Origin: Takakia lepidozioides | Taxonomy: Eukaryota > Plantae > Bryophyta | NCBI GenBank assembly: GCA_030704615.1 | Contig: CM060734.1 | Span: forward strand, 1,860,001 to 1,924,000 | DNA: 64,000 nucleotides | Direction of reading: 5' to 3' | Part shown: one piece after another, positions 1,394 to 50,100 of the stretch | How positions within the stretch are numbered: position 1 is the stretch's first letter | Layout of the letters: every line of letters begins with the position of its first letter | Translations under genes and position numbers: made by a program | Notes under the pieces: model-generated | Seen by the model: only the letters and a program-made list of their open reading frames with translations | Told to the model about the DNA's origin: nothing | The model's database searches: none

Positions 1394-3100
1394 GTGGAGG
1401 AGGTGCACATTGTGAGTGTCATTACGGAGTTACCCAAGGGTTTTGAGGGGAGTACGGCTACAGGCAGTAACAGTGAGAGTGGGTTCACAAGACGAGGTAT
1501 TCGGTTCAGACCACCTTCACCGCCACCCTCAATTACTGTAGAGTCAGACACAGACTCGGAGGCTTCATCAACAGGTGTGCACTTTCATTCGCCATTGTTG
1601 TGGGACGACATGGAGGAGATGTATGGAGCTACCAAGGGGCCTCGTAGGTACTCTGGAGCTGTGGGCACAATCGAGTTGGATGACTTTATCCAGGAGTTCG
1701 ACAGCTGGTGTGATTTGCAGCAGATGCGCAATCCACAGCTATTCACCCCATTCATGGCGTGGAAGGGACTGTTCCAGCATTTGGAAGGCCGCCTATGGAC
1801 GATTACCACGAGTTCAGGCGAGGACATGAAGCAGAGATTGAGGAGTGGAGGATGTATTGGTCACCTGACTACGTCTCCATTACTCGAGGCACGACGCGAC
1901 CAGTAGCTGCATCAGTACCAATAGCTCCCACTGCCAGCACTAGTAGTGGAGCAAGTAGTGCTGGTACTTCTGCAGGTGGTACCAGTTCAAAAGGTGCTAC
2001 TACTCCTCCTGCCACGACTACAACACATGTGCCTAGATTCAACCCGGTGGTGGAGTTCTTCCAGGAGTTGCGGAGGAACTACCAAGGTGTACGGACAGAG
2101 AAGCTGCGAAGTTTGCAAGACTTCCAGCGCAAACCCAGTGAGAGCCTGCGAGAGGCGTACACTCGTATGAGGCGCTTGATAAGTGTGACCCAAGGGGTTA
2201 CTGAAGCTCAGGCAATCCAGTTTTGGTATGGAATTCTGGACAAGGAGCTCAAGAGAAGGGTGCGAGATGCAACCCTGTTACAAGCAGCCCAACCCACATT
2301 AGCAGATGTGTTCTGCTGGCTGAGCGGATTGAGCTCAACATGGTGGAGGAGCGAGTTGTTACAATTGGATTTGGCAAGGACATGCCTGCACGGGGCACAG
2401 CTGTCAGCCCACAGGCACAAGGGACTGCCCAACAGCGTGGTCAGGGGGGCAAGGTTGCCCAGCCAAGTTCCATGGAGCTTACAGGGGACCTCAGGTGCAG
2501 AGGCCCGTGGCATCTTTTGCAGGCCAACAGCAACCAGGGGTGATATGTTGGACATGTGGAGGACCCCATGTCAAAAGAGATTGCCCAGAGAGTGGCAGAA
2601 GGCCGGCACAAGCACAGCCTGCACAGTTGCAGTGTGGGCATTGTGGCAAGTATGGGCATGGAGATGCCCAGTGTTATGACTTGCATCCTGAGTTGCGCCC
2701 AGGCCAGTTCCAAGGGAACAATGGTGGCCGGGGGCGAGGTGGACCAGCCCAAAGAGGACGAGGTGGTCGGGCACGAGGTGCAGGCCAAGGGCAAGCTCCA
2801 CATGGCCAAGGACGCGGAGGTCAGGGTGTTGACCAAGGCATGGCCAATCGGCTTCAGCAGCTAGAGCAGAGGCTCGCTGCCATGGCTATAGCTCAGGCGG
2901 TACCGGCTCCCAGGCGGGATGGTCCACCTCCTGCTCCTGAGGGAGGAGATATGGGAGGCATGGGATTCATGTGCGGAGCAGCACTACCACTAGAGCAGGT
3001 GGAGTCTGCTGCAGCCGTGACTCGAGGAGCAGCACGAGTTCCTGAGCCACGAGGTGCAGAGGTGGAGTTGGATCCACACGTGGGGAGGCAAGCCGTCAGG
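1394..3100 (+). pseudogene. gag: gag (capsid-like region, two CCHC-type zinc knuckles, RGG-rich tail), split by frameshifts
   Basis: LDDFIQEFDSWCD; FQRKPSESLREAYTRM (gag major-homology-like); CWTCGGPHVKRDC and CGHCGKYGHGDAQC in ORF 2495-3229. Confidence 0.85.
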
Positions 3101-3539
3101 CGAGGCTGCCTCAGTCATTCACCTTGGCGGAGACAGTGTCAACGCCATCCATGGCACCTAGTTCTCGCCCGACTGTTACCGAGGCGGAGGTTACTATGCC
3201 ATTGGGGAGAGCTACACGTGCAGCACTGACACCTGCTACCAAGGCTAGTGCAGCCGGTGTGTTATTGGGGGCAGCCACCTCTGTGTGTCAAGCCCCACTG
3301 TTTCGGCAACCATGATTGCGACGCCGGGGGTGAGACCAGCTGCAGTGTTCAGACTAGCAGCAACACTCTGTGAGAGTGGGGAGGTCACTTCATCTTCTGC
3401 GGAGTTAGTGGAAGGTGTAGTGGCAGAGGGATCCTCGGATTTGAGGGTCAAGACTGCCACGGCTGCGCCATGGCAAGCTGCAGCTGCCAGGTTGACGGAG
3501 CTGCCAGCTAGGCCAGCCATTGAGCGCGCCATGGTGACA

Positions 3540-3960
3540 CCTGGAGTTGTCTTGTTAGACAACCAGGGAGGCATTTTCACTTTGAGTGGACCGGCAGGCA
3601 AGAAGTACCGGCCACTGCGGGTCTTGTTGGACTCAGGAGCTCAGCCACTGATGTTGGGCAGAGCTGCTATTGCAGGTTTGGGCCTCATGGAGGCGGATAT
3701 GGAGCCTTGTCCTTTCCAGATACAGACATCTCTGGGAGGATCAGAGCAGGCTCGCGGCATGACACGGCATCAGTTGGCTATTAGACTGCAGCCGGATCTG
3801 TAGATGGCTCAGTGATGCGAGCCAAGGCCATTGTGACAGACGCGGTCTCTTACGATGTCCTCGTTGGTGGGGCAGTGTTATACCCATGGGCTTCACCCTG
3901 GATTTCTGGGAGGAGTCAGCATCCTACAGGCCTGGATGGCAGTCAGGGGATGGTCGCCGT
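3540..3960 (+). pseudogene. Retroviral-type aspartic protease domain
   Basis: VLLDSGAQPLMLG (D-S-G active site) in ORF 3285-3803; downstream YDVLVGG-like flap-partner motif at about 3850-3870. Confidence 0.85.
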
Positions 3961-4335: not shown

Positions 4336-5275
4336 TGCCTTCTGGACTTGTTTGGCGGGATCAGCACCGGATTGGCTGCTGTGCTACAGGCAGGTGTGCG
4401 GTAAGGCGTTACCTGTATGTGGAGAGGGATGAGACTGCACGACGCGTCTCACTGCCATGTGCTCAGTTGGTACAGCAGTACCCTGATTGTTGGCTGCAGT
4501 TCGTGGATACCAACAAGCCTTGCCAGCAGACATTTCTTGTTGGGGGCGCAAGATTTGGAGCAGGTTGGCTCCATTGATCTGTAGTGGCAGGTTGGCCCTG
4601 CCAAGGGCATTCATCAGCCGGGCATGGCAATGGATTGCGAGACTCGAGGACGGGTCTGTTTTGGGAGATGGTGCGGATTTTGCGCTGCTTGCAGCTTCAT
4701 CAAGCTGTATCTCCAGCATACATCTTGGAGAATGTACCACTGATGGGTGATTCTCGGGCCAGGGTGATGGCCAGTGTGCATCAAGTCCGGTCGTGGCTTG
4801 GGTCAGCAGTATTGCTGGATGCAGCTGCAGTGGGGTCACGGGCTCATCGTCCACGACTATGGTGGACTAACTTGATGCCACCCGCACTGCTCAAGCGTGC
4901 ATTTGATGGGGTGCAGCGGCCAGCACACCTCACCGTGGATGGCATTTTGGACACAGGAAGGCAGTCTCAACGTGTGAGACACGATGACCGTTCGCCTTTG
5001 GCAGTGGTCCAGGGTGGGTCAACCACGAGCAGCATTACCTACACTGCTCAGCTTCCCAGGATCCCATGCTTTTCGGGATGGTGGACCTGGCCTCCTGTGG
5101 GATGCTCAGTTGCAGCAGTTAGTGGAGCCTAATGCCGACGAGCGAGAGCGGGCTATGGGGTTTTCCACTGGGACCACGGCGGTGCCTTCTCTTTCTGAGG
5201 CATCACGTCGTCAGGTGTTGGGGCAAGCAATGGATCTCAATTGCTTGACCTGGATTGTCAGCTTGGCTATGGCTG
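4336..5275 (+). pseudogene. C5 cytosine DNA methyltransferase domain (DNMT3-like) embedded in pol
   Basis: Across frameshifts: motif I LLDLFGGISTG (4339), II RRYLYVERD, III LPADI, IV AGWPCQGHS (catalytic PC), V GLFWEMVRIL, VI YILENV, VIII DAAAVGSRAHRPRLWWTNL, IX ERERAMGF, X RRQVLGQAMD. Confidence 0.93.
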
Positions 5276-5689
5276 AGCAACGTAGAGTGCGGAGTGCACT
5301 TCCCTTGACGGTCTCTCTGCCTACCGAGACGGTACAGGCAGCGAGTGGGGGCGAGCCGGTGAGGACCACGAGGTGTAGACATCCATGGCACACGTGGGAG
5401 GTGCTCGAGGTTCAGAGGGAGTTGGCAGCGAAGGCAGCTGTGATGGATGAGGTTGGGGATTCTTCTCGGGATGAGGAGGTTCTCAATGATGAGATGATGG
5501 GGCAGGATGAGGCCTTGTCATTGACTGAGCAGGAAGGGGGTACTGCTCAAGAGGTTGCAGCATAGCAACCACGGGACGCGTCCTCTACCTCTAAGCCCAC
5601 TGGACTTAAGGTTGCAGTTACGGAGGACAATTGGGAGCCTGACATTGGACCCATTGTCACCGGAGGAGAGAGACGACGTATACGGCGGT

Positions 5690-6470
5690 TCCTGAGGGCT
5701 TACAGGAATTGCTTTGCCTTCAGTTTGAAGGACTTGGGAGCACTGAAGGGTCAAGAGATCCGTATTGAGTTGGCCACTGACACGCCAATCTTTCGGAGAC
5801 CCTATAGATACAGTGACATGGAGAGGTCTTTGATTCAGATGAGGACTCAAGATCTCTGGGAGGCAGGTTTGGTGGAGCTCTCTGGTGGAGAGTATGCTTC
5901 AGCCACAGTGATGCCAGCTAAGAAGGATGTCTATGGCAATTGGACGGAGAGACGTATGTGCGGTGATTACCGGCCTGTAAATCGTCAGACCAAGTCCGAT
6001 AGGTATGCCATGCCAACACCAGAGGAGATCTTTGATGCCATTGGGCATTCCAAGGTCTTTAGCACGTTGGATTTACGATCCGGATATCACCAGTTGCCGA
6101 TCAAGGAGGCGGATAAGCAAAAGACGGCATTCTGGGGGATCAATGAGCACGGGAAGGATTGCCTATACCAGTGGCGGTTCTTACCATTTGGGCTTAAAAA
6201 CGCCCGCTGAGTTTCAAAGAGTCATGGACAGGATTCTAGCAGGGGTGGAGTTTGCTCGGTGCTACATAGATGACATCATCATCTTTAGTGCTACGGTGGA
6301 GGAGCATGAGAGACACCTTCAGGGGGTATTTGAGCGCTTGAGGACGCACGGATTGAAGTTACATCCGGGCAAGTGCAAGTTTTTCCACAACCAGATTGAG
6401 TATCTGGGTCACATGATATATCCTGGAGGATTGGGGGTACAGCAGACTAAGGTAGTCCATTGCACAGGTT
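5690..6470 (+). pseudogene. pol: Reverse transcriptase domain
   Basis: RMCGDYRPVN, FSTLDLRSGYHQ, LPFGLKNA, catalytic CYIDDII (about 6260), LHPGKCKF, IEYLGH; 1-bp frameshift near 6205. Confidence 0.97.
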
Positions 6471-6485
6471 CCACGCCCCACGGAT

Positions 6486-8500
6486 GTGAGCCGAGTTCGA
6501 GCTTTCATGGGGTTAGCAAACTATTACAGACGGTTTGTTAAGGGATTTAGTGCCATTGCAAAGGCTCTAACCAAGCTGACCAAGGTGGACCAGGAGTGGC
6601 AGTGGGAAGATGAGCAAGAACAAGCTTTTCAAGAGCTCAAGGCGAGGTTGACCTCGGCGCCCATCTTGAGACGACCTATCAGGGGGCGTCCTTTTCAGCT
6701 GCATACAGATTGGAGCATGCTGGGGCTTGGAGCGGTGCTCACACAGGTGGATGATGAGGGAAGAGAGTTCGTAGTGGCTTATGCTAGCCGCTCGAACAAT
6801 GCTGCAGAGTCTAAGTATAGCTCATATGAGGGAGAATGCTTAGCTGCAGTGTGGGCCGTGGCACACTTCAGGTGCTATCTATACGGCAATCTCTTCACCC
6901 TTGTCACGGATCACCAACCACTCAAGTGGTTGATGGAGTCAGACAAGCTTACGGGGAAGCTTGCACGGTGGGCACTCATCCTTCAAGAGTATGACTTTCA
7001 GGTGGTGCATCGACCGGGTTTGGTCAATCGAAATGCAGATGGGTTGAGTCGCAATCCATGCACGAGCCAGCAGGATGACACTGGAGCTCGGTGGCATGGT
7101 GAGACGGACGAGGAGATGGTGCCCGGATGGCATGCATCTGCATTTCTGTGTATCTTGGCAGCGGAAGGCCAGGTTGGACCTACAACAGGGATGACTGTAG
7201 ATCAAGTGTCTGAGGACCCTGAGGCCAGCAATGAGCAGGGTGGCGCCAAAGATATACATGAGGATTCAGTTGTGTTGGACTACCTCCGCAGTGGAGACAC
7301 GGCAGCCACTATGACTGCCAAGGAGAGGGATCGGATCCTACAACGAGCCAAGAGGTTCAGGTGGGAGGGGACACACCTGCTCCGAGTGTGGGAGGATGGT
7401 CGAGTGAGGATTGTGCCTCACCCAACACAGCGGGCACGGTTAGTGCGGCATGCCCATGAGGAGTTGGGGCATTTTGGGGTGCGACGCACTCATAGTCTAC
7501 TGCAGGGGCAGTATTGGTGGCGTGGTATGCACACAGAGGTGCAACAATTTGTGGCTAGGTGCATGGTGTGTGACAGGGTGCGTGCTTCATTCAACGCCCC
7601 TACTCCACAATTGCACCCTCTTCCGATCATGGGATTGGGCTACAGGTGGAGTCTTGACTTCGCAGGGCCGTTGCCACTGACCATGCGCCACAACAAGTAC
7701 GTGTTGGTGATGGTGGAGCACTTCTCCAAGTGGATTGAATTGGTTCCATTGCCTGATAAGGCTAGTGAGGGAGCTGCGTATGCATTCCTGGATTGTGTGC
7801 TTAGCCGATTCGGTGCTCCAGCTGAGGTACTCACGGACCAAGGGAGAGAGTTCTTGGGGGAGTTTCAGGCTTTGTGTGACAAGGCCTTGATAGACCACCG
7901 CACCACTTCTCGGGATCATCCTGAAGCCGATGGCTTGGCAGAGAGAGTTGTTCAGACAGTAAAGAGGGGTTTGCGCAAGTATGGCTTGCAGAAGGGACAC
8001 CTAGGAGATTGGGACCTTCAGTTACCCTGGTTAGCCATGGGCTACAGGTTCAGCAAGCAAGCATCACTTGCCTCCTTCTCACCATACTTTCTTCTCTTTG
8101 GCCGAGAGCCGGATTTGCCTACATCCATTCGCAGAGAAGCTGCTACAGTTCTTAACCTTGACGATCCGGACGTGTGGGCACGTGCATGTGAGCAGCGTGC
8201 AGAGTTGTTCAAGAGAGTCATGCCCATGGCTTTCGAGAACCTTGCCATTGCACAACACCGTGATACGTTGAGGTATGCTACCATACGTGGTGGGGGGGCT
8301 ATCGTCCTGGGGTTCGGAGATTCAACCCTGGTGACTGTCTATCTGCAGCAGACTGCTCCTACGACCCTGGATGTGACTGCAGGACGTGTTATTTTGAGGG
8401 TTCGAGAGGTCTTGCCCTCAGGCGTCTTGGTCTTGGAGGGTCGGGATGGCATAACTTGGAAGGACCATGTGCGTAATTGTGCGCCATGTCACCTTCCGAA
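6486..8500 (+). CDS. pol: RNase H and integrase of pol
   Basis: RH: LHTDWS, EGECLA, VTDH, NADGLSR. INT: HAHEELGH…CMVC zinc finger, SLDFAG, LTDQG, AERVV (DDE). Confidence 0.97.
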
Positions 8501-8552: not shown

Positions 8553-8696
8553 TGCATGTTGTGTGGGTCTGCTAAGGGGCAGCCACCATGCTGGTGTGTG
8601 ATCGATGCTCTAGAGGTTGGCATATGGGATGCTTGACTCCACCTCTTGAGATGGTTCCGGATGGGGATTGGTTTATGTCCACATTGCATTGGATAG
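8553..8696 (+). pseudogene. PHD finger (C4HC3) at the integrase C-terminus
   Basis: With two 1-bp indels in homopolymers corrected: CMLCGSAKGAATMLVCDRCSRGWHMGCLTPPLEMVPDGDWLCPHCIG-stop (TAG 8694-8696). Confidence 0.9.
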
Positions 8697-8957
8697 TGGG
8701 AGTGGATACAACCATGGAAGGCTAACAAGAAACGCAAGGCCAGCTACTAGGAGACCTTGAACACACGAGGTCCTGGCTCAAGTTCACAGATTGCAAGACG
8801 GCGACTAACGATGGGGCTACTCTTGTACCCGGCCTCTTGGTCTATAGAGTTTGAGTACAATAGGGACAGTGATAGAGAGGACTTAGTACGGCTGTGGCTA
8901 TTACATCTTGTAGCTATCTGGAGGTAGAGGGACCTATCCACCAGCTAGGGGGGCGAT

Positions 8958-9543
8958 TGTGGCAGACTACTTTATTGTGCATATATGTGTGGTGTGGTTT
9001 GGACACAGCGATGTAGTTGTTGTAGCGATATGTATGCGCACGACAGCTGTCAAGTTAAATAAGCACAGTGTGAAAACAGCTAGAATAAAACTAGTTATTT
9101 GTATTTAACACTTGGATTTAGGTCAAGTGTTAAATCAGGTGTCAAGTTTAGTTTGACACCTGGTCCGTCTTATCTTCACGAGAGCGGCAGTCGCGCGGCT
9201 CATCTTTCTCGAGTTGAGCCTGCGCGACCGAGCTCCGCATCGTTTAGATTTGAGTGTGCTTATGAGGGAGTGTAGGTTGTTGTGGGGTGGAGTCCCATAG
9301 CTTGGGGTGCCCCTGGCTCGACTACTATTTCTAAGAGTGATGGTTTGGTTTTCATGTTTTGTGTCAACAGTGTGTCCATAGCTTTCTTATATTGTGGCAG
9401 ACTACTTATTTGTGCATATATGTGTGTTGTGGTTTGGACAGCGATGTAGTTGTGTAGCGATATGTATGCGCACGACAATAGCAAAAAATTCCTGCAACCA
9501 CGCGTGATCACGCGAGGTTCCTGTGTGTCTAGGCTCATCCACA
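8958..9543 (+). repeat. 3' LTR of the Gypsy element
   Basis: Follows the purine tract AGGGGGGCGA; starts TGTGG, ends CCACA (5-bp inverted termini); internal direct repeat 8958-9045 vs 9393-9477. Confidence 0.75.
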
Positions 9544-23457: not shown

Positions 23458-24129
23458 ATGTCGTCTTTACGGAATGCAGTGAAGAGGCGTGCCCACAAGG
23501 AGCGGCCGCAGCCGAGTGAGCGGAGAAGATTGGGGCTGCTCGAGAAGCACAAGGATTATGTTCTGCGTGCCAGAGATTTTCACAAGAAGGAGGAGACTAT
23601 TCGGAATCTGAAGGAGAAAGCAGCGTTCAGAAACCCTGATGAGTTTTATTACAAGATGATTAACTCTAGGACAGTTAATGGGGTGCACAGGTCCAAGAGT
23701 GATGGGAAGCAATACAGTGAGGAGGAAATGCAGTTGATGAGGACTCATGACATTGGCTACTTGCTGACTAAAGCCCAGATTGAAAGGAAGAAGGTGGATA
23801 GGCTGAAGTCTGATTATTATTCTATCAACGACCCTCCCTCCAATAAACATGTGTACTACGCTGACGAGCGGGATGAGGCAGAGAAGCTAGGATCAGAAGC
23901 ACCAGAGAGGCCCCATGGTTCGCGTCAAGTCCCGAATCTGTCCAAGGGCTTGAGAAAAGAGTTGCAAGAACGTAGTGAGAGAGCTGAGAAGCTGCGTCAG
24001 ATGGCCATGACCATGTCATTGCAGAAACAGCTCACAGGGAAGGGCAGAAAGCGTAAATCATGGTCTGACGAAGTCGGCACATGTACAGAACAGCCTGTCT
24101 ATAAATGGCGACAAGAGAGGAAGACTTAA
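23458..24129 (+). CDS. UTP11: U3 snoRNP/SSU processome protein Utp11, intronless
   Basis: MSSLRNAVKRRAHKERPQP…LLEKHKDY…FRNPDEFYYKM…KGRKRK…VYKWRQERK; true ATG at 23458. Confidence 0.96.
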   Translation: MSSLRNAVKRRAHKERPQPSERRRLGLLEKHKDYVLRARDFHKKEETIRNLKEKAAFRNPDEFYYKMINSRTVNGVHRSKSDGKQYSEEEMQLMRTHDIGYLLTKAQIERKKVDRLKSDYYSINDPPSNKHVYYADERDEAEKLGSEAPERPHGSRQVPNLSKGLRKELQERSERAEKLRQMAMTMSLQKQLTGKGRKRKSWSDEVGTCTEQPVYKWRQERKT

Positions 24130-26529
24130 TTTTGCTGAAGAAGCAGTAATTGCAGTGGCTCTCTTTGAGCCATGCTGACATTGTCCCCTTCCTCAGAGAT
24201 GTGCATGAGAGCGAGGACATGGAAGTTCCAATCATCACTAGCTACCGGTCTTCCTTCCTAAGTCTCCAAAAAGAAACAGGGCCATCAGGGTTCAGGGTAC
24301 TGGCATGCTACTGTTCAAACTGGTTGACTCCCTACATATCTTTCCCACACCCAGATCGATTATCTAGTTACAAATTGGTGCAGACTGCAGAGCCACTTGT
24401 TTCTGATAGCCTCGTAGCAGCTTGTTGTTTTATTGCACCTCTGTGTTCAAATATAGTGTCCAGAGGAGGGGTTCTAGGTTTAATTTTTCTTCGGTTTCTG
24501 TAATTCTGACTGTGTCCCTGGGTCCTTTGGGTCTCTGACAGACATAGTATCTCTATATCTCTCTCCCCGCCCAAACTGAGCATAGGGTCTATGGCCACAA
24601 GTCTAAACAACATCTTATGAGTACATCTCTCTCTCCAATACTGGAGTGAGCCCCTCACAAAGGTAGTGTCTGTTCCCTTTTGTTCCACCTAAACTGGGCA
24701 CGGGGTCTATGGCAAACTATGTCTTATGAATACATTCTCTCTCCCTCAACACACACACACACACACACAGAATGCTAATTTTCCATTCTTTTGCTTTAAG
24801 ATATGCATTGAAGCTCACCTGTAGGAGGAACTTGGCTGCGATGGATCCAGGTGAGGCTGCTTCACCTTCTTTAATTGCCGGAAATACTAAGAGCAAGAGT
24901 CTTAGGGAGTGAGGCTTTGAGCCTCTGTTTGTATGTGTTGATTTTGTACACATACTACTGCTGTTTTGCACTGGGGTTGAAGGATCTATCAGCTTGTACC
25001 TACATGTTAAGGAGTTACCATTAAGGAACATTCCAACCTGTGCTGTTGGTTCCTAAGATATGAATGTGAGGAGGCAGATCTGTTTGTGAGAAGGGCCTAC
25101 CTAGTGTGCATCTGATTGCCACTTACAACACCTGAATACAAATTTTGCAGTAAGGATTTGTAAAGGGAGGTCTGGAGGCAGATCTGGGTTGAGACATTTT
25201 GGGTGTTTGTTATTAGTTATGAAGTCACCAAGCTCACCCTCCCATCCTTGTGGTTAGGGTGAGGTTACTATGTCAATGGTTGCCAAGTAGGCACCAACAG
25301 TTCAAAGGGGTGAGTACACATAATCCTCACTCACCCTCCCTCTTAAGTAGAGTTGTGTCTTACAAATCTTCTTTTGTATCATGAGCTGTCTATTCTCTCT
25401 CACTCACGGAATGCTATAAAAAGTCTTTCTTTTGCTTTAATTTGAAGCTCACCTGTACGAGGCACTTGCAAAGTTTAAGACCTGGTTTCCTAATGTTGTT
25501 TTGGTTGTCCTGGACCCCATCTCTCGTTGTAAGTTCAAAGCTCCTGTTTCTCTCTTTCTCTGCTTGCTTCAAAGGTCAGTTAGATGACCTTATTGGACAT
25601 CATTGGGATGATGTCTATTTAGGCACTTTTTGAGAAGTGTAAGGGCCCATACTCAATGAAATGTAACTGAACTGAAGCACCTCCTTGGACTTCTTGAGAA
25701 GCCTTTGGAAAGCCAAGGTGGAGGTTATTCCATTGCAGACATGGTGACAGTAATTTCTTGGATATAAATTAATATGGAGTTAGAGTAGGCCACCAAGGAA
25801 TTCAAGCTCCACAAGTTTCAAAATGCCATGGCATGGAAGGACCACTCTGCAGGTCATAGTCCTTATGTACCTACACTGAACTTTGGAGTTCTTAGCTGGA
25901 ATAGCGCAGGGGAATAGTGCAAGATAGTGAGAGATTCAGTAAATATTGCTGTAAAGCTTTGCCCTGCACATACCCCTCCTTGCAAACTGAGCCTGCATGA
26001 AATCTGTGCATTCAGAGTCAGACAACCCATCCTTGGAGCATGCACTGCATAATGCTGATCACTCACATTCTCAACTTGTAACCACTCTCTCTAGCAATAA
26101 ATCAATTTCTCAGAAATAGGGGGCAGATTGATTGTACAGATTTCTATCAACCCATTGTCTGGCTTGCCAAGCCAAGCATTCAATAAGAATTACCTTCATG
26201 CGGGTAGTTCCGTTCATCATCAACTTGGACGATTACTAGAAGGATGGTATGTGGAAACGCCATCACACTTCCAATTAAGACGGTAGTCCCGAAGTAGCAG
26301 CCACTCTTTAGTGAAACGGCCGGACCTCCAGATGAGCTGTCTGGCGAGGAGGGTGCGAGGAGGATTGTGGGTGCGCAGGTGCAGGATGCTGCATGCAAAG
26401 CAGATGGAGGGGCTTGCAATGTGGTGGAGATAGCTCTGATTTGTGGAGTTGAAGGGGATCGGACTTGAGTCTGTCCTTCTTGGGATCCTTTCTGGTGCGG
26501 CAGCACATAGTTTTCAAAGCAAGAGAAAG

Positions 26530-29500
26530 ATGCATCCCAGGCAACGGGCAGCTGGGTTCAGATCGTCTCGTAGTCCACCTGCGCCTTCGCGGTATCAGTC
26601 AAAGGCGCGAGATTTTGAAACTTCGAGGCCCCCAGATTGGGATTTCACTCGGGTTGCTGATCCACCGGGCTATGGGACCTCGAAGTATCTCCCCATAAAC
26701 CCTAGAGAAGCTTTCGACGACCCAGGGGATCGAGTGGAGGAGAGCATGAGGAGGGAAGCACATAGGTTGGCCGCTGAATACTTTGCATCGAAAGGTCTTG
26801 CTTCAGAGAAATTGGCAACTAGAGGAGGCCGAGCCAGTGATGTGCCAGACAAATTTGCATCATATCTAGATCCGAACCCTGCCACCACTGCTCTATCCGA
26901 CCCCCGGAGGCTGGTACGTGAAGATGGAGGGGATCGTGCGACGCAGTTTCGCAGTCTGTATAGCGATCCTGATGATTTTTATCCGGAAAGCAAGTATCCG
27001 TCATATCGACAGTCCGAGAAGCATTCCTACGATGACAGTAGATATTCTAGGCCGCTTGTGCTCGAGTCTAGAAAGTTTGACAATCCGTTGGCAGGCAGGG
27101 ATGCGGCACCAAGGACACACTTTGAGAGTCTGACGAAAGACCCCACAGTCGGTCTAATGGGCAGCACGAGTATGTATGAACATTATCTGCGCACAGGGGC
27201 ACTGGGAGGTTCCTCTCGTGAGCTCCTAGGGAACGATGGAAGGGAGCCTTCCACGTACAATCTAAGCTCAGACTATGACGCATACCTCCCTCAGAAGGAA
27301 GCGAGACAACCACAAAGAGAGCGGGGGAAAAGGCCGTACGATGGTGAAAGGAAGGGCGGTGGCCATCGAAGGAATGATGGGTTTGGGGGCAAGCGAAGGA
27401 ACAGGTCTCTGGGGACCTACGACAGTGGTGACACCCACAATGAAACTGGGGTCAAGGCTGCATTTCCCGCACATCATCCAGCCTCGTATATGACAATGCT
27501 CGAAGTGGACAGTGCCAGGAGGCGTGGGGATCCTGACTACAGGCTGGAAGATTACGACTTTACTGACAGTGCTGCTGGAACCCTCTCTCACGAAGAACTT
27601 GGAAGGCATGTGGCCCAGAGCATGGGCGTGAGAAGAGAAAGGCTCCAGGAGCGAGCAGGATTTCAAGGTGGGAAGCGGACTGTTCTCAATTCTCAGTTTG
27701 TGGAGGACCTTTCTAGAGGGAAGGATGAGTTCCGGGATCGAGCGCCGGGAAGTACGGGAGGAGGTCTAGGTGGTCGGATTCCACAGACTTTGGGTTATCT
27801 TGGTGAGAGTGAGAGGGCTTTCCTCCAGTTGGACAGTGAAGGGAATTCCCGTTCTTTCAGTGGTCGAGGGGAGAGGCTTCTGGAAGGATCCCCTAGTTTT
27901 GAAGTCGAGGGTGCTCACCGAGCTCTGACAAGGTTGCGGCCTCCTCCCTCGCTTGAGGACAACAGACTTGAATCCATGAGGTTTAATTCAGACACTGGCA
28001 ATTACAGGATTGCTAGTGGGAGTTTGGTGGATAAGGACAAGCAGCTCTATCCCTCCTTTGAGAGAGACCGAGTACGAGTGGGTGAGGCAGAATCTCTTGT
28101 GCACAGCACTTTTGAGAGGTACAGCTTTGACTTAATTTTTTCTCTCCTTCCAATCTGCAGTACCCTTCGATGCGTGAAATGGATGAGAGGCTGATTGTTC
28201 TGGGGGATGAATAGTAAGGCGACTGGGCTGTGTGTGTATCTGATATTTCTGGTCTGTTTTCTAGGCCTGACACAGGTTTAATGGATCCAGTGGCAGGTAT
28301 GAAGTTGGTAAGGGAGATGTTGCTGATATATATGGGGAAGGTAGTATTGCTGAGTCAAGGCATCCATCATACAGAGACCCGCCAGGGTTCTCATTAGGGG
28401 CTCACCACCAATCAAATGCATGGAGGCAAAGAAATGGTGATGTATCAGGAATTGGTCAGCCATCTTCACTTCAGGATATTAATAGGCATGGCAACCTTCA
28501 ACATGACAACCTTGCTTCAATGAGTCAGCCAGGGTGTACTCCAGCTGCTTTCAATACTCGCCAGTCAGCCTCACATGTTCAGAGGGATCAGTTCACAGGC
28601 AAGAGACCTTCGACGTTTGATAAGCGAAGGCTAGATTTTGGAACAAGAGATCGGAAGAGGCTTTCTAATTCCCCCCGCAATACGAGGACCAGTGCCCGGG
28701 GTATGCGTCCTAGAAAGTTCAAAAAGTGGCAGAAAGGGCGTGAGTTTCCCGAAAGACCTGGGAGTGCTTCACAAGCAGAAGAACTCTTTCGCATGCATAA
28801 CCAGAGGGCTCATAAACCTTCATTTGAGCAGGAGATCCCTGAAAGCAAAGCCAGTGGCCCACATCGTATCCCCTCCCTACGTGGTCCGTCCCCAAAAGAG
28901 AGCAGTAGCAAAGATGAAGACTCTGACTGGGATGCTGGTATGGAGGTGAAACCAGCAAGTGTGCTGCAAAACAACAGCGGGCCCTCGTGGGCTGAGCCCT
29001 CACAGCAATCACACCCAGACTGGACGGCTTTCAATGGGGACAAGGCTGGGCCATCTGATTGGAATGAGAAAGGGGAAAAGCAGGATTCTGCACCACGTAC
29101 AGAAGATGAGAAAGAGCTTGATGCACTGTTGCGTGTGCAGCAGGTGGCATCTGTCAGTTCACGTCAATTTTTGAAAGAGATATCTGAGGATGATGATGAT
29201 GATGATGAGGATGGGGATGAGGATGATGTCTACAACGACGAGGATGGTGAAGTGGGCTCCTTGATGGGGGATTCACTGGCCTCAGATGATGAGGTACTGG
29301 ACCAAGATTCTGGAATGGACACCAAAGAAGAGGAGGGGAATGAGGTTGGGTCAACTGAGGTGTCTATTAAGAGCAAAGAGGAGAAGGCATACGAGTACTT
29401 TGTCAAAGTATTTGAAGAGAATGGGGATTTGCGGAAGTTGTACGAGGAGCAACGCAACTGTGGTAGCTTTGAGTGCCTTGTGTGTGTTGGTGACGGTGCT

Positions 29501-30615
29501 AGGTGAGTTCCTCCTAGTATTCAATTTGGGAATGTCTATGATGCAACTCAAATCTGTATTGCTAATATAAATTTTGCAGCATATAAATCTTGGTTTTATT
29601 AGTCATCTTATTATTGGACACTACTTTCTGTCAATCTTCCCTGGTGGTTTGCAATATACAAGATTGTTGCTGTAGCCTTGTATGATACGGGGAAGGAATA
29701 TACTTGGGTAAATTTGAAGCAGTGTTATCCCTCCATTTCCACCCAGAATTCGAGAGAACAGGGCTCTGCTACATTTATCTACAGCCTACCACATTATGTT
29801 GTTATTGGAAAGTGGCAAGGCTGTGAGAAGAGGAAAGGGTTGATGGTTGTGTTGCAGGGCTAAGAAGAAGTTTCCAGATGTAAGTGGCTTGGTGCAGCAT
29901 TCAACGAAAATCTTGAAGACCAAGAAGCTTTCTGAGCACCGTGGGTATGCACGCGCCATATGCTATGTATTGGGCTGGGACCCACTGGGCCCTCCACAGC
30001 CGGCCGCTCGTGTTGGATTGCTGGCACCCAGGGGTTGCATTCCAGTCATTGAAAACCCCCCTCTGCCTTTGGAGACACCTGCGACGAAGGTGACATCATG
30101 TGCAATCTTTCTTACTGTCTCTGCATGTTTTTGATCAGGCAGACTCGTTTCCATGTGCTCTGGCTGGTTGTGGTTGGGTCCTTCATTATTTTCTGATTTG
30201 GTTCCTGAATCGTCCAAGACACCATGAATGTCAATCCAAACCATGCGATAAATTTGACAGCTCCTGCAAATGTGAAAGAATGTGTAATTTTAGCTGAACA
30301 CTATGCAATTAAGAACAATTATTACTTTGGTAGGGAGGCCTTCATAGGCGGGCCATGAGCTTTCTCCTTGTGTGCGGTTGTTACCTGGTCTTGTTTCGGT
30401 TTTGTACGTACTGTTGTGAATGCATGACGCAGTCCATAGGTACTGCACAAACCCCTTCACAAATGAGGCCTTTTGGAACTTGGGCAGGGAAGTGGAGGAG
30501 CAAAGTGGCTAAGATCTATTCCTGGTGGGTCTTGCAGGAAGATGATACTGGAGTTGAGAGCCCAAGTGCAAAACACACAAAAGTCACCTCAGAGGCAGCC
30601 CCCGTGGCAGAGTAA
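26530..30615 (+). CDS. Large low-complexity protein with acidic tract and C-terminal CxxC…H…H zinc-finger-like domain, 4 exons
   Basis: Phase-consistent exons 26530-28118, 28276-29502, 29858-30089, 30538-30615; conserved-looking FECLVCVG…FPDVSGLVQHS…KKLSEHRGYARAICYVLGWD. Confidence 0.8.
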
Positions 30616-35948: not shown

Positions 35949-38453
35949 TTACCAATAATCTCCACAAGAACAAACCCCATCTTGGAAATTGTGGAAGTAG
36001 TTGGCATCCCGAACCACAATTGTGCACCCAACAATCTTTGAAATGAACTTAGTTGCGGTGTGGCAATCACCACACACTCAAAGGTTCTTGATGACACGGA
36101 TAGGCGTCCCAAGGGGCATGGCGATGAGCCCATAAGCTATAGCAAGCTTCTCACTGTGGTGATAAAGGGACAATTCCTTTCGATCCTCCTCTACATCATG
36201 CAATACAATGCGTGTGTCAGGCAGGTACCCAGCCTCCTTCAGCTGCCCAGCTACTCTCTTCAGCTCAGCATGGATTTCCTCAATTTGGGGATGCAATTTG
36301 TCTTCTCCAATGAATGTATGCAGTTGGTTGTTGACCTTATTGCAGCTCTGCCCTGGCTCCGTTCTGACACCTGTCCTCCATCATTTTCCTCACCTTTGCT
36401 TTGTCATCCCACCTACCTGCTGCAGCATAGATGATGTGGGTCACACTTGAGAATGCTCTTTGCCGCACGTTCCGCTACCTCCAAATCACCATGAATTCTA
36501 GAGGCACCAAACAAAGCCCTCCACACCCCAGCATCTGCTTTGATTGGCATTCTGATAATAAAGTCCTCTGCCTCAGCCAATCGCCCTGCACGGCCAAGAA
36601 TGTCCACCATGCAGCCAAAATGCTCCACCATAGGACTGAGACCATGGTCTTGGACCATGGATTCAAAGTAGTGTTGGCCTTCTTCCACTAAGCCTGCACG
36701 GCTACCCGACGAAAGAAGAGAAGTGAAGGTGATGCCATCCGGCTTCAAGCCCTCTTGTTGCATTTGTTCAAATAGTTGGAGAGCCTCCCTACCACACCCA
36801 TGCTGGGCATATCCTGCAATCATTGCACTCCATGAGACAGCATTCCGTTCAGTCATATTGTCGAATATTTTACATGCATTCTTCATGCTCCCACATTTTG
36901 CATACATGTCTGCAAGGGCAGTCTCCAAACTAACACATTTTGCAGTGCCAGCTTTGATTATGTCAGCATGGACATCTCTGCCCTTTTCCAGGGCACCTAG
37001 GCTGGCACACACATTGAGAACGCAGAGGAATGTGACCCTGTCAGGTGTCACCCCTTCACATTGCATTTGCTCATAGAGCTTGAAAGCCTCCCTACCATGT
37101 CCATGCTGGGCATATCCTGCCATCATCACACTCCATGAGACCACATTCCGTGTAGCCATGTTGTCAAAAACTTGCTGTGCATCCTTCATGCTCCCACATT
37201 TGGCATACATGTCAGCAAGAGCAGTCTCCAAATTAACATATGACACAATTCCAGCCTTAATGATGTCGGCATGGACCTCTCTGCCCTTTTCCAGGGCCCC
37301 TAGGCTGGCACATGCATTGAGAATGCAAATGAATGTGACCCTGTCTGGGGCCACCTGTTCCTGCTGCATTTTCTGATAGAGCTCGAAGGCCTCCCTACCA
37401 TGCCCCTGCTGGGCATATCCTGCAATCATCACACTCCAAGAGTCCACATCCCGTTTAGCCATATTGTCGAACAGTTGACGTGCATCTTCCATGCTATCAC
37501 ATTTCGCATACATGTCAATAACAGCATTCTCCAACTGAACAAATGACGGAATTCCGGCTTTGATGATATCGGCATGGACTTCTTTGCCTTTCTCCAGGTC
37601 TCCTAGGCTGACACATGCATACCCTGTTAGGTGTCACCCCTTCCCGTTGCATTTGCTTATAGATCTCCAAAGCCTCCCTCCCAAACCCATGCTGAGCGTA
37701 TCCTGCGACCATCGCACTCCATGAGACCACATCACGTTCAGCCATATTGTCGAACACTTGGCGCGCTTCCTTCATGCTTCCACATTTCAAATACATGTCA
37801 ACAAGGGTATTCTCCAGAATGATATCTGGTGCAATTATGCTTTTGGCGATATCAGCATGAACCTGCTGGCCCTTTTTAAGGGCACCAAGACTTGCACATG
37901 CATTGAGAACGCAAGTGAAGGTACCCCTGTCAGGCTTCACCCCTTCCCGTTGCATTTGTTCATAGATCTCGAACTCCTCCATACCATACCCATTCTTGGC
38001 ATATCCTTCTATCATTATACTCCAGGTAAACAAAGTTCGTTCTTGAATTGTGTCAAACACCCGGCGCGCATCCACCAGGCTCCCACACTTGCCATACATG
38101 TTGATAAGTGTATTGAGTAGCAGGATGTTTGGCTTGAACCCACTTTGATTTATGTGTGTGTGCACCTGCCTTCCCTCTGCTAAATCCTTCATCTTGATGC
38201 ATTCCTTCAAGAGATAGATGTAAAAACTGGAGTCTGCCCGAATGCCTTGCTGGTTCAAATTGTGCGATCCCTCTTTGAGACGTACTGCCTTAAAAAGTGT
38301 CCTCACATACCCACAAGTTGCAGAAGCGTTCTTGTTGACTCCTCTTTCAAAATCAGTGGAGATGGTGGAGGTGTTAGAACCAGTGCAAATAGGTCCAGCA
38401 TCACACGAGTGTAGGTACCTCTGGAGAGGATAGAAACAGGGCATGGTTTGCAC
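35949..38453 (-). pseudogene. PLS-class PPR protein with E and DYW domains (C-to-U editing factor), disrupted
   Basis: Repeated P-L-S motifs (DMYAKCGS…VVSWSAMIAGYAQHG), E domain, HHSEKLA, CGDCH, CSCGDYW-stop. Deletion frameshifts near 37620 and 36430; TGA in place of Arg at 36078-36080. Confidence 0.95.
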
Positions 38454-40679
38454 AAGAGATGAGTGATGATGGGGCGGGGAGAGGGGGAGAGATTGTGGGT
38501 AGCCTAGACGAAGTTGTAGAATGCTTGAGGTGCCAGTGACCAGTCCATCTAGAAAGAGATTTGGGAATTTCTGGAGGATTTTTCTTTCCCCCGGCTGCGA
38601 CCCTCAAGCCCAACAGACCCGCGCGTTCCTAGTCTGAAGCCCCGTCTGTGAAATCAACGAAAGGTTGATTATTCCTGACACGCCCATCTAGAAAGAAGAA
38701 GGGTCTGACATCACAGCCCGCCAAAGCTGCCAGTGTTGATAATAAGAAGCCTCTGCTGCATTATACCGTTCACCCCAAGGAGCAGAAAGGGCCTGGGGGA
38801 TATGGCATCTCCCCTCTCGCTCAGAAGAGCGCTGGAGCACGCTGCCATCTCTGCGATGGGTTCGTCGAAACAAGCTGTGTCCAACCGAATAAAGCACTTC
38901 ATGAGACATGGATGTCCGACCCTTTGAGGCTTCAACTCTTCAATGGTACCGCACAAATGTGGCAAAACTTCACTGTACACGAAATCTGAGCAGCAGCTGT
39001 GGATCCCAAGATGATACCACTCAGAATTTCTGCTTCACCTTACGCAACTACCCATGTGCAGTCACTAATCAAGTAGAGAAGAAATGAACGCCCACAAACA
39101 ATCCTGTATAGGGTAGAAGCTAGAAGCCACTATTATGGCTTGACAAGTTACTTAAATAACTTTCTGTACTTTTAACCTTTGAGCTCGTATTCTACCTCAA
39201 TAGAACGCTCTTTATATAAAGGTAGATTCCTTTAGTTGAGCACTAGCTTTGATAATGTCTTAAAGGCCTTAACCACTAAAGGACGAAGCGACCCATTGGT
39301 TAGGTTTTAGAAAAGTGTCTGGTTACCACTGGGGTTAAGCCTGATTTGGGCATGTTTAGGCTCATTGGATAGGTAATCGAGTCAGCTATGAGGTGGCATT
39401 TTCCAATTCGTCATTGGGCCTGGCCCCAGCCACGTGGAACACCTAGAGTCTGCCACTCTCGTGGTTTTCAGCCCCATTTTGGGCAGCTAACCTGCCCTCC
39501 ATCCTACGCGTCAACTAGGGTTAGGTTAGGGAGAAATTCCACGCACCCCCACTTGCACAGGGTGGCGCATCTCCCAACACCCTTTATTGCGCCCCCTCCA
39601 CCCTAAAGCGCCCCCATTCGCCGTGCCTCAGAAGGCCCCCATGCCTGTGCCCTACATACCTTAGGGCTACTGGCCAAAAGTATAGGCAAACATAGGTGCA
39701 CATGGAGAAGTCATGGGCAGGGGAAAAAATCATATGAAGGGAAGCTCTGATTGGCGCGAAAATATTTTTGTGCTTACACAAACCTGCCCACTACAGTACA
39801 ACCGGAGCGATTGACAATTCAACGGTTTAGATATTTTCACCGAATTTTCTAATACGGTTTTGTGCTTGCCCTTTTGAAATTGGGAAATTTGACCCCCCCA
39901 AATGGGCCATACAAAGCAGCCCACATGAGAACATGTCAGAAAAAGCTGAAATTTTCAGAAAAGCTGTGTTTTTTACCCCATTGTAAATAGGAAATTTGTT
40001 TTTGGCCCAACTTTCAACATTATATGCAATCCTGCGGGTCGATTTGGACCAGACTTTTTGCGGTCATAGCTGGGGTAGGTAGGAACATATTACAACGGTC
40101 AATTTTACAGGGCATGGGGAACTCAAGATATAAATTATTTAGTGGGGAAGGGTCAATTTTTGGGGGTGGACCCAAAAATTGGGGTTAGTCCTTTACGAGT
40201 TACATTAGTTCCCAACAAGTGGGGTACATATACCCCTTTGGTGGAGGTGTTCCTTTTATGGCTCAAAGACAATGGAGCCCCTCATGTGGTTCATACATGC
40301 ACCAAACATGGCTATATGTTCCGGTCTACTATTTCCTTTTTCCTTGTTTTTTAAAGAGAAAGGGGACATAGGCTCTTTTAATCAAATTAAATAAATAAGA
40401 GTTCACATAAGGTGGAAAAAATAACCACCAGGGAGGCCGTGAAGGCTCACCAAGGGGGAACATCCCCGAGACCGTAGCAAACTAGCTAAACTAGGTTGAA
40501 AGAAAGGGAGATAGATGAAGTGGGGAGTGAATTGGGAAGTAGAGAAACTCTATTCCTAAGAGACCAAAGTGGAAGCCCAATGAAGGCTGGAATTCATAAG
40601 TCGAAGATGATTCCTAGTGTAAGGCCACACAATGCCTGATCGTAACAGCATATACCAAAGCACTCGTAGCTTTCCAAAG

Positions 40680-45059: not shown

Positions 45060-45810
45060 CCTCTATGTACATGAGTAGGGGCAGGGCTGGAGGCACCGGA
45101 GACCTGTGAGCAAATGATATGGAAGGGGGTGCAACTAGACAAGGTCACATTCATTTCTCTTTGCATGCATGTGTGAGCCTGGCAACCCTGGAAATGGGCA
45201 AAGAGGTCCATGGGACATCATCAAGGGTGGAACTGTACGACGTGTCATTCTGAAAAATACCCTTGTTGATATGTATGCCAAATGCGAGAACACTGGGGAT
45301 GCAAAGGGAGTGTTTACCAACTTGGCTGACTGGGTTGTGGTGTCGTAGAGCACAATGATCCCAAGATATGTACATCAGCCCAAGAAGGGGTGGAGGATTT
45401 GGAGACCTGTGCGCAAATGCACAGCAGAAGGGGGTGTTCAGCCAGACCTGGTCACATCTTTCATGGAGCGCAATGATCACAAAATATGTGTATGAGTAGG
45501 GGCAGGGCTGGAGGCTTTGGAGACCTATGAGCAAATGATATGGAAGGGGGTGCAGCTACACCAGGTCACATTCATTTCTTTTTGCATGCATGCGTCAGCT
45601 TGGCAGCCCTGGAAATGGGCAAGGAGGTCCTTGGGTCATCGTGATGGCTGGAACTGTACAACATGTCATTCTGAAAAATACCCTCGTTGACTTGTATGCT
45701 AAAGGTGGGAGCACTGTGGACGCAAAGGGAGTGTTTAACAACATGGCTGAATGGGTTGTGGTGTCGTGGAGCACAATGATCACAAGATATGTACATCAGC
45801 CCGGCAAGGA
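45060..45810 (+). pseudogene. Degenerate PLS-PPR repeats
   Basis: VILKNTLVDMYAKC…DAKGVF…VVVSWSTMI twice, with stops and frameshifts. Confidence 0.85.
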
Positions 45811-46009
45811 ATCTCTGCTTTGCTGGTAGGACTTAGAAAGTGTCAACAACCACCCATATCATTCCGCGGACCCCCTGCACTAACTGCAGCCGGGTAGGCG
45901 GTTCATCGAGCCCAACCTACACCGTGACTTACCACGACCCCTCCCCTAGCTAGTATGTCGTCACCCTGGCCGCGCGCGCCCAGGGCTCGTCACAGGTGTT
46001 CGAGTTCAG

Positions 46010-46352
46010 AGGTACTTGTTTGTGGAGAGGGATGAGACTGCACGACGCGTCTCACTGCGCCATGTTGCTCAATTGGTGCAGTAGTATCTTGATTTGTTGC
46101 CGGTGTCTGCAATTCGTGGATACCAGCAGACATTGCCTGACTCTCCAGCATATATCTTAGAGAATGTGCCACTGATGGGTGATACTCGGGCCAAGGTGAT
46201 GGCCAGTGTGCATCAAGTTCGGTCTTGGCTTGGGTCAACAGTGTTGCTGGATGCAGCTGCAGTGGGGTCACGGGCTCATCGCCCACGACTATAATGGACC
46301 AATTTGATGCCACCTGCACTCCTCAAGCTTGCATATGATGGGGTGCAACGGC
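46010..46352 (+). pseudogene. Second, internally deleted fragment of the retrotransposon DNMT domain
   Basis: Nucleotide-level match to about 4404-4526 and 4710-4920: RYLFVERDETARRVS…YQQTLP / SPAYILENVPLMGD…DAAAVGSRAHRPRL; two premature stops. Confidence 0.93.
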
Positions 46353-48139: not shown

Positions 48140-50100
48140 AGACTCCAGTCGAAGCCGGCGTAACTAAGAGCCACTTTGCCTTGCGGCTACTGCCCCCTTT
48201 CGGGGGTGGGCCCTATAAAAAGAAAGGTGTCCCGTGGGACACCGGGTGACCGTTGAGAGTAGATACCACTGGGGGATCTAGGGTGCGTTTGAAGTGCCAG
48301 ATTCCAATTGACGTTTGTTGGTGATAATAGCTGTGAGTGAATGGAGTGCCGTGGTATGAATTGCTTTGAAGCATTTGTGGATGGGAAGAATGGGATTTTT
48401 GAAGTTATCGTGTATGTCATTGATACCGGCGTTATGGATGCCGCCTCGGGTGCCGGCGGTGATAACGGTTAACGAACCGGTTTTCCAGCCACGCCTTCGG
48501 ATTGCAAGGATAAGCGGAGCATATTTTTTTATGTTTTGCTAAGATTGAGTCATTTGGGTAACGATCATGGCAAAATGTGAATTCGATGAAATGGATGGTG
48601 AGGTGGGAGGTAGAGTGTTAATGGGTAGGCCTTGTACAAAGGGTATGTCCGGACAAAGCCTAGCGGGGCATGAGCATGGTGATCGGGTACATATGCATGG
48701 TAGCAACCATGGTGGTACAGTGTGGTCGGGTGGCCGCCCTTGGTAGGTGCCAGCGTTCATGAGCGAGAACCATCGGGTTTCAGCACATTTTAGAAAGAGC
48801 TTCTGGAGGTGCCAGACTGCCTGGTTATGTCGCGTGATGTGAAGGCCATGTATGATTGGGTGCGTACATAGGCTGAGAAGATGTGGCCAAGTGTCACGAG
48901 CTTGGTGGGTGATAGAACATAGCGGGCAGTATGGGGATGGGAACAGATGTGGCCAAAAGATGTGTTTGCGCTGGTGGCCCATGTAATGGGCATACCGGAA
49001 TTTGAGAGTTTGTCGGATTTGTACATCAATGGTAGCTTTGATTAGCCAAAAGTGATTTGAGAGTTTATGGTGCAATACATTGGATTGAGTCCATTTTTGG
49101 ATGTGTACTTTGGTGTGGCTGATGGAGGCTGCAGCTTGTTTATTTGCTTCTCTGGTCAGAGTGGTCAGAAGGTTTCAGACTGGTCTGGGTGCAGGGGGGT
49201 CCGGAACGGGGTGTATGAACCAGAAGGGGTGGGTGTGGGCAATGTGGATAGAGTCGTTCGTGGGTTCAACTCTGGGTTGGGAGGCGCCGAGTTAAGTGAG
49301 TAGGTCTGCTTCTTCATTACCAAGAATGCCGGTGTGTGAGTGGACTTTGAGTAGATGGACTGGGTGTTTTATGGAAGTGGCCTTTGAACAATGGCGGCAA
49401 TGAGGTTGCAGTCGGGGTGATGATGATGGGAAGAAGGGCAGGAGTGGTTTCGGATAAGATATAGTGAGGTGAGGCTATCGGTGAAGATATAGTATGGGGG
49501 GGGGAAGGCGTCTAGTAGGGAAAGTGCATCATGCATGGCCATCAGTTCAGCTCTTAGAATGGTGGCAGAGCCAGGGAGCCGGAGGGCAACACCCTGACCG
49601 CTGCCGGCGTGAAAAATTCCATACCGTGCATTAGGTTTGGTGAGGGATCCATCAGTATAGTGTGAGTTGGTGGGGGGATACTTAAGGATGGTGTGCTCCT
49701 GATATATTGAGGGAATGGGGGAGGGGGTGTTGTCGATATTTCCTTTGGGGGGGGGGGGGGCGTGGCAGCGCCATGCCCCAGGCTTTGTTTGTTTTAATCC
49801 GGGAACGTGTGGTGGCTATGTGGATGTGGGAGGACCTGTATCTGGGTAATGGATGGTGGCCTTGATTTTGTGGTTTATGGTTAGCAGCTGTTCGAGCTGG
49901 TGAAAAAAGGGTGTCGGTATTGTCAGGGGAAACAAGTGCCAATAAAACCCTAGGGGTTTATCAAACGAACAATGAACGGACGGAGGTAGGATGAAGTTGG
50001 AAGGAATGAGTGGGGCAAACAATGATGAATGCGCCAAGGGCATGGGCAGATGAAGAGAATGGGGAAGATGGAAGAGTTGGGTATTACTTATGTGCTTCAT
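48140..50100 (-). mobile_element. 5'-truncated non-LTR retrotransposon: RNase H, CCHC zinc finger, restriction-like endonuclease (Dualen/RandI-like order)
   Basis: RNase H YTDGS (about 49650), RAEL, IFTDS, KVHSHTGILGNEEAD (about 49310); CPLC…HLLSLC; RHNQAV; LCPDI; IEFTFC…KHKKYAPL…GW…ITAGTRGGIH. The 3' end abuts a (TC)n tract. Confidence 0.82.

Follow-up and report, generated by a model that had tools for sequence, protein, structure and literature searches.

A conserved in-frame stop codon parts a DNMT3-like methyltransferase from an integrase-borne PHD finger in a land-plant Gypsy retrotransposon

The Gypsy retrotransposon of the window (i.e. the whole stretch of DNA analysed, 64,000 nucleotides from Takakia lepidozioides) has the domain order Gag-PR-DNMT-[in-frame UAG CARYY]-RT-RH-INT-PHD, so that a stop codon lies between a DNMT3-like methyltransferase, encoded with Gag, and a PHD finger at the C-terminus of the integrase. 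KnitGypsy-Dnmt3 is a Gypsy element that likewise carries a DNMT3-like domain, and the window element is a relative of it from a land plant. Across families of the lineage the PHD, the DNMT and the stop are conserved, with purifying selection and with split terminal repeats associated with 4-bp target-site duplications (TSDs). The pairing of PHD and DNMT is itself old, common and partly described, and what is new is the conserved stop that apportions the writer and the reader. The reading that is favoured here, with some reserve, is that the PHD on the integrase C-terminus tethers the integration complex to H3 tails and that the DNMT that ends ORF1 is made at the level of Gag, packaged, and acts on the element's own cDNA.

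The element lies on the forward strand. Its gag region (1610-3300) contains two CCHC zinc knuckles (2546-2584 and 2633-2674) and several frame breaks, and matches PF03732 weakly, below the cut-off; it is followed by an aspartic protease (3490-3890, with LLDSGA at 3624-3641) and by a DNMT3-like C5 cytosine methyltransferase (4336-5295; PF00145, E = 1.6e-10), which carries several frameshifts and ends ORF1. The methyltransferase motifs occur in unrearranged order (I at 4345, IV (PC) at 4587, VI (ENV) at 4722, VIII (RxR) at 4842, IX at 5140 and X at 5218), and the corresponding domain of an intact relative (L001), modelled at pLDDT 94.8, finds DNMT3A/B/C as its top PDB matches both by sequence and by fold (TM 0.71); the DNMT3-like domain that the preliminary description had placed in the same element as the PHD is therefore borne out. 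ORF2 encodes the reverse transcriptase (5617-6540, with YIDD at 6263-6274 and breaks near 6202 and 6455), the RNase H (6603-7007) and the integrase (7407-8489), the latter consisting of an HHCC domain (7455-7574), a DDE core (7650-7955) and a beta-rich C-terminal domain reaching to 8489, in which two further breaks (8292 and ~8336), absent from the preliminary description, precede the PHD. The integrase of an intact relative, at a mean pLDDT of 82.9, matches the foamy-virus and Ty3 integrases. Domain searches of the element returned no chromodomain, integrase C-terminus included, no aRH domain and no match to a tyrosine recombinase, rve and HHCC domains being found instead, unlike in DIRS/Ngaro elements; no relatives were found in IMG/VR.

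The PHD finger (8553-8696) follows the beta-rich C-terminal domain of the integrase, and is recognized in three pieces, which precede the ORF2 stop, from the PF00628 match of its middle piece, the pattern of its ligands and the contigs of other copies. In a six-frame translation of 8553-8687, all eight zinc ligands appear in C4HC3 order with canonical spacing and the core Trp: CMLC (8553-8564) in frame 3; CDRC (8597-8608), the H..C within GWHMGC (8615-8632) and the PPL..VP.G.W stretch, which runs to 8674, in frame 2; and CPHC (8676-8687) again in frame 3, before the stop at 8694-8696. Two frame breaks, at ~8573-8575 in A/G runs and at 8672-8675 in a T run, thus split a full C4HC3 PHD at the integrase C-terminus, and in both its integrity and its position the finger is as the preliminary description had proposed. 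The profile check suggested there gave 31.1 bits (E = 2.4e-7) for the unbroken middle piece alone, the Pfam gathering cut-off for PF00628 being 24 bits. Each of the two break sites shows a length difference in contigs of other family copies in all four public runs (from at most three samples), and these breaks as well as those at 8292 and ~8336 show it in 15-37 contigs each in runs X1 and X2. The finger of an intact relative is modelled at pLDDT 86-91. A chance motif is ruled out, as the core pattern has a single match in the 64-kb window and none in 60 shuffles of it, and so is a host PHD gene lying beside the element, given that intact relatives encode integrase and PHD in one continuous frame.

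Beyond this copy, PF00628 was recognized in 94 of 120 integrase homologs among the matches listed (460 found); the other 26 of those listed are mostly truncated, and five of them (P0078, P0085, P0095, P0108 and P0119) group in a clade, with Closterium sequences among its members, that has lost the PHD and so offers a natural control for insertion bias. Named sequences of the lineage are known from Haematococcus, Tetrabaena, Chromochloris, Klebsormidium, Closterium, Coleochaete, Calypogeia, Riccia and Marchantia. A second set consisted of the best 80 of 101 metagenome loci, fetched by RNase H patterns, plus the window; the loci fall into 18 families, one of which accounts for 48 of the 73 that were clustered. 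Within this set, the PHD is present in all 37 sequences that show the RNase H marker and extend far enough downstream (L079, outside this count, has lost it), and the DNMT in 32 of the 37 with enough upstream DNA, the five exceptions being truncated or interrupted near the RT. Comparison of L001 and L002, which represent intact subfamilies, gives dN/dS values of 0.05 for the PHD, 0.11 for the DNMT and 0.03 for the integrase, and both PHD and DNMT are under purifying selection across families; the values inside the big decayed family (0.26-1.08) are little informative, and several between-family values are saturated.

Two arrangements of the methyltransferase are found. Besides that of the window, nine sequences (P0089, P0094, P0098, P0099, P0104, P0109, P0112, P0114 and P0120) have the layout RT-RH-DNMT-INT-PHD in one ORF, and this group includes sequences from Haematococcus, Tetrabaena and Chromochloris, i.e. 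it is chlorophyte-associated. In quick trees of integrase and of DNMT alike, the two layouts form separate groups at moderate support (86-91), and in the DNMT tree, where unnamed rows were labelled by default, the split by DNMT position requires one change (support 91). A complete PR-RT-RH-INT-PHD ORF that has no DNMT is also known (P0100), and the PHD, therefore, does not need the writer. In Marchantia polymorpha, many gene models that bear the annotation DNA methyltransferase, CCHC or PHD protein correspond to pieces of this element (P0185-P0188, P0192, P0198-P0200, P0208 and P0057), and bryophyte 'DNMT' and 'PHD' gene models can, in general, be fragments of it.

At the junction between ORF1 (Gag-PR-DNMT) and ORF2 (RT-RH-INT-PHD) an in-frame UAG is followed by CAACCA, a CARYYA-type context (5563-5571), and is predicted to be a readthrough site. 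In 31 of 40 sequences that retain both the end of the DNMT and the RT, belonging to five families, TAG or TAA followed by CARYY stands just before the RT, the strict CARYYA being present in seven of the 40; the remaining nine junctions show UGA-CGG (two), UAG-GGG (one), a double UAG (one), no stop (one) or are broken (four), and the UGA-CGG and UAG-GGG junctions occur in distant families. These contexts, CARYYA, UGA-CGG and UAG-GGG, are those of the type I, II and III readthrough sites of plant viruses, respectively (PMC2754532). After stops produced by decay, CARYY is found in 8 of 710 cases, and a decay mutation as the source of the UAG at 5563 is ruled out by its conservation across families. 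L001 has open frames of 1369 and 1047 codons with a single UAG-CAGTTA between them, and the Marchantia and Calypogeia DNMT proteins terminate at the junction as ORF1 of the window does; more generally, land-plant DNMT proteins end 93-99 residues past motif X, and proteins spanning RT to PHD start just after. Some relatives of algal type (L020, P0025, P0028, P0036 and P0043) lack a stop. The stop at 5563 is, thus, likely to be a programmed readthrough site. The DNMT is in frame with the RT but behind the conserved stop, and the two domains can therefore share a chain at most in the readthrough product, so that the 'one polyprotein' uniting DNMT and PHD, as previously put forward, is not supported.

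A long-range RNA stem is predicted from folding energy 3' of the stop (5574-5680, with arms at about 5574-5594 and 5655-5680). In the element under study it reaches -22.6 kcal/mol, and none of 743 other folding windows is as good, the arms having been chosen after the folds were seen; with arms likewise chosen post hoc, the stem is the best of ~740 windows in 5 of 15 sequences, and it is absent in L065. Pairing is found in two unrelated versions of the sequence, with -20 to -25 kcal/mol for their own arms and -6 to -9 kcal/mol for crossed arms. The z-scores are modest (-0.5 to -3.3, against a background mean of -0.4 to -1.0), and RNAalifold, applied to 15 junctions, recovered a short inner hairpin only and not the long stem.

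As for the ligand of the PHD, the solved fingers closest to it belong to CHD4, PHF12, PHF21A, ATXR5, KDM5A/B PHD1, DPF2/3, KAT6A, BAZ2 and UHRF1. Most of them bind unmodified H3. In 80 fingers of the lineage an Asp follows Cys3 in 76, and the P.G.W loop retains its P in 72 and its G in 68; we take the P.G.W to form the A1 pocket and the Asp after Cys3 to be the acidic residue of the R2 pocket in these fingers. In PHD fingers that read K4me0, an acidic residue ahead of Cys1 usually binds the unmethylated K4. At position -2 from Cys1 the eight commonest residues of the 80 fingers are never acidic; at position -3, D stands in 35 of them and G in 21, and the window has G (SAGLRC), the acid being absent there and in the clade to which the window belongs. 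The aromatic cage, the K4me3-reading feature of PHD fingers, has been described together with the A1/R2 pocket features (PMC12713335), and the cage-Trp site of the 80 fingers is occupied by G (73), A (5) or P (2), an aromatic residue appearing in one misread column class only. With the A1 and R2 pockets kept and the K4me3 cage absent, the PHD is likely to be a reader of the H3 tail that disfavours K4me3, and its targeting to H3K4me0 is plausible. The subtype assigned in the preliminary description, one said there to bind unmethylated H3K4 often, is supported in so far as the CHD4, PHF21A, ATXR5, KDM5A/B PHD1, DPF and UHRF1 fingers are the closest and the cage is lacking.

The 3' end of the element consists of a polypurine tract (PPT, 8943-8955), repeat B1 (8956-9045), repeat A2 (9048-9390), whose 5' partner A1 is absent from the window, and repeat B2 (9391-9477), which is 93% identical to B1 and forms the 3' end of the element (..GACA). 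At the palindromic B/A junction (9042-9052) CA, two bases and TG make up the likely attachment site of the integrase; this CA-nn-TG is found in 18 of 37 loci and in 5 of 112 control stretches. The complete arrangement A1..B1-A2-B2 is seen in L018, L076 and L078, the window retaining PPT-B1-A2-B2 (8943-9477), and relatives measure 9.2-9.3 kb. Matching 4-bp TSDs flank L076/L078, L056 and L015, and three of the four bases match in L018. Behind 9477 there are 44 loose contig ends in run X2, with an agreement of 0.36. Upstream of gag, where A1 would be expected, two overlapping open frames (156-879) may represent an extra ORF or another insertion; the ORF at 403-876 had no Pfam match and no counterpart in the 80 loci, and its Atlas matches were all below 0.9.

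These features can be assembled into a mechanism in which translation would mostly end at the UAG, releasing Gag-PR-DNMT, and a few percent of ribosomes would pass it, aided by the 3' stem, to give RT and integrase-PHD. The protease would likely free the domains, so that reader and writer would share a particle but, for the most part, no chain. The DNMT, packaged in many copies, would be placed to methylate the new cDNA, and the PHD would likely bind the N-terminus of H3 through the A1 and R2 pockets, with K4me3 disfavoured, which would direct insertion away from active promoters. Integration would likely proceed through the CA-nn-TG junction inside the terminal repeat.

How ORF2 is expressed bears on whether reader and writer ever meet in one chain. 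Were it translated after reinitiation or splicing, or from an internal promoter, DNMT and PHD would never be joined, and the largest family, with CAACCC after the stop (a single mismatch to the consensus) and an AUG at codon 3 past it, is in keeping with such a route, as is the Tca2 junction, for which no readthrough in yeast and a weak promoter were found (PMC2194720). Against it stand a single in-frame stop in a readthrough-type context in five families, a frame that is continuous across the junction, and the lack of an early AUG in the window or in L001, where the first AUG past the stop lies 85 codons into the RT and 117 codons on, respectively; expression of ORF2 by these other means is considered improbable. 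Quite unlikely, too, is a coupling of the type of the ADD domain, in which the PHD, joined to or docked on the DNMT, would direct the enzyme to H3K4me0 chromatin where the element inserts, much as in the ADD-DNMT3 logic that the preliminary description had invoked. The two domains are kept together under purifying selection across families, the readthrough product would contain both, and in the chlorophyte-associated group (eight proteins and P0094) the DNMT stands between RNase H and integrase with the PHD in the same ORF. Yet in the group of the window DNMT and PHD are set apart by the stop, ~1,100 residues and three enzymes, P0100 retains the PHD without a DNMT, no ADD family match was obtained in the element or in the relatives scanned, and ADD is described for animal DNMT3 only in the source consulted (PMC12344493). 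Since the DNMT would be made at the level of Gag, and would be joined to the PHD in nothing but the minor product, the ADD analogy is weakened.

Reading of the H3 tail by the PHD and a functional state of the window copy can be questioned as well. The finger may bind a non-histone partner (e.g. Gag, a host factor or the unusual terminal junction) and serve in assembly or in integration of the permuted ends, as the missing acid for K4 ahead of Cys1, the co-occurrence of PHD and split repeats across loci and the example of ASXL, in which a C4HC3 motif need not bind histones (PMC12713335), would allow; against this rather unlikely alternative, the A1 and R2 pocket residues are kept in more than 85% of the 80 fingers, and the nearest solved fingers belong to chromatin proteins. 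That the copy is a true broken relic, whose PHD mattered only in its ancestors, deserves somewhat more weight, though it is still judged doubtful. With respect to intact relatives there are 14-16 breaks in ORF1 and 6 in ORF2, i.e. 20-22 in 7.1 kb, A1 is absent from the window, and no contig among those listed spans the stretch. Premature stops, on the other hand, are absent, whereas among the ORF2 sequences of 20 loci breaks outnumber stops in none, and 15 decayed loci have 3-44 stops; furthermore, the integrase branch of the copy is short (0.031), a 90-92% identical protein reads through the DNMT break near 5010, and a host PPR gene is likewise split over two frames. Owing to the lack of premature stops, the short integrase branch and the protein that spans one break, the frame breaks are probably assembly errors in a young copy, the conclusions on the DNMT breaks and on the 5' end resting on relatives rather than reads. 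About 15,000 contigs per run align to 1.7 kb of the element, a depth that is not a copy number, and the family, therefore, has many diverged copies.

Elsewhere in the window, an internally deleted DNMT fragment (45986-46352) shares 79-91% identity with 4391-4524 and 4710-4920 and stands by itself, with no other part of the element. The PPR gene (36413-38603, reverse strand) is split near 37600, and PPR-like pieces are found near 45064-45802 and 53392-53722. A single-exon host UTP11 gene (23461-24129), long low-complexity host ORFs of 584 and 411 codons with no Pfam match (26440-29506), and tandem repeats at 60087-61717 and 55256-55954, with units of 416-417 and ~100 bases, are also present. 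In a tree of UTP11 the host branches first in a clade distinct from liverworts, vascular and seed plants (support 100/99), which is probably that of the mosses. Degenerate ORFs at 48539-49815 (reverse strand) resemble, by eye, a LINE end with RNase H-like and cysteine-rich stretches; the one that was scanned gave no Pfam match.

When DNMT-bearing retrotransposons were reported in 2018, the enzyme had no known role. The position of the stop now indicates both its amount and its place, i.e. in bulk and with Gag, and thereby argues for cDNA or RNA in the particle as its substrate, and not for PHD-guided writing on chromatin. Liverworts and mosses are among the hosts of the lineage, and they include Marchantia polymorpha, for which histone maps, methylomes and genetics are available, so that PHD-guided insertion and self-methylation can be tested. 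A broader picture, which is tentative and may well not hold in full, is that of a green-plant-wide lineage whose permuted ends are mostly missed by LTR finders, in which a leaky stop would yield a capsid-level DNMT3 that methylates cDNA in the particle, integration would take place through CA-nn-TG and the PHD would pick the sites; in the chlorophyte branch the DNMT directly ahead of the integrase-PHD would make a true writer-reader chain.

Among known systems, the closest is the Gypsy-DNMT3 element described from Klebsormidium by de Mendoza et al. 2018 (PMC5890265) and since named for streptophytes (bioRxiv 10.64898/2026.05.21.726589). KnitGypsy-Dnmt3 shares with the element of the window the Gypsy order, a DNMT3-like domain that is unrearranged and stands after the protease and before the RT, and, according to the legend of Fig. 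4c, a DIRS-type repeat layout (PMC5890265), and the Klebsormidium sequences P0043, P0007 and P0053 are homologs of the window element. In contrast to its open Pol ORF, the DNMT here ends ORF1 at a conserved stop, and the host is a land plant, whereas charophytes are the only hosts named in the text of PMC5890265. Methylation of cDNA was already proposed by these authors; in yeast, their Klebsormidium enzyme produced no methylation, which they regard as inconclusive (PMC5890265). The text and supplements of PMC5890265 make no mention of a PHD. In the open literature no paper was found that brings together PHD, DNMT3 and a readthrough stop for this lineage, and none that reports the lineage in land plants, although subscription papers, figures and preprint supplements could hold some such report.

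PHD fingers in retrotransposons have been called widespread (PMC6673714). In the green lineage, Gypsy-7a_cRei and REM1 of Chlamydomonas reinhardtii are Gypsy elements with a PHD, proposed to curb harmful insertions, and a PHD-bearing Chlamydomonas Gypsy inserts between genes 2.6x more often than expected (PMC9940879); they differ in having ordinary LTRs and, as far as the text consulted goes, no mention of a DNMT, and the legend places their PHD before INT (PMC9940879). Chromoviruses, too, bear a chromatin-reader fold on the integrase C-terminus, but a chromodomain where the window element has a PHD, and a TSD of mostly 5 bp rather than 4 bp (PMC6317226). The EpiLTRs also combine a chromatin reader with a methylation module, namely a DNMT4-sister enzyme, DAM and a chromodomain instead of PHD and DNMT3 (bioRxiv 10.64898/2026.05.21.726589), and CopiaMBD is a retrotransposon with an MBD, not with PHD and DNMT3 (PMC6673714). 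The earlier statement that integrase-PHD fusions are described for Selgy found no counterpart in the REXdb paper, whose main text and supplements contain neither 'PHD' nor 'homeodomain' and list no extra domain for Selgy (PMC6317226). Selgy elements have a 4-bp TSD as well, but measure 4.4-6.7 kb and are organized as GAG:o:PROT-RT-RH-INT (PMC6317226), whereas the relatives studied here are 9.2-9.3 kb long, with a stop after the DNMT and with both PHD and DNMT; membership in Selgy is rejected on these structural features (size, layout and extra domains).

With regard to the junction, the TMV-type UAG-CAR-YYA site (PMC2754532) has the same six-base context as the window, where readthrough is predicted from the sequence, and the extended stem-loops of alphaviruses are similar to the stem predicted here, ~12 bases past the stop (PMC13517186). 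A stop between protease and RT is, furthermore, the commonest layout of Retand elements (49%) and is found in 14% of Ogre elements, both of the Tat group (REXdb Additional file 5, PMC6317226). The window family differs from Retand and Ogre in the lack of an aRH, in the 4-bp instead of 5-bp TSD and in the split repeats, and, in contrast to their GAG-PROT:s:RT-RH-INT organization, it has the whole DNMT on the Gag side of the stop.
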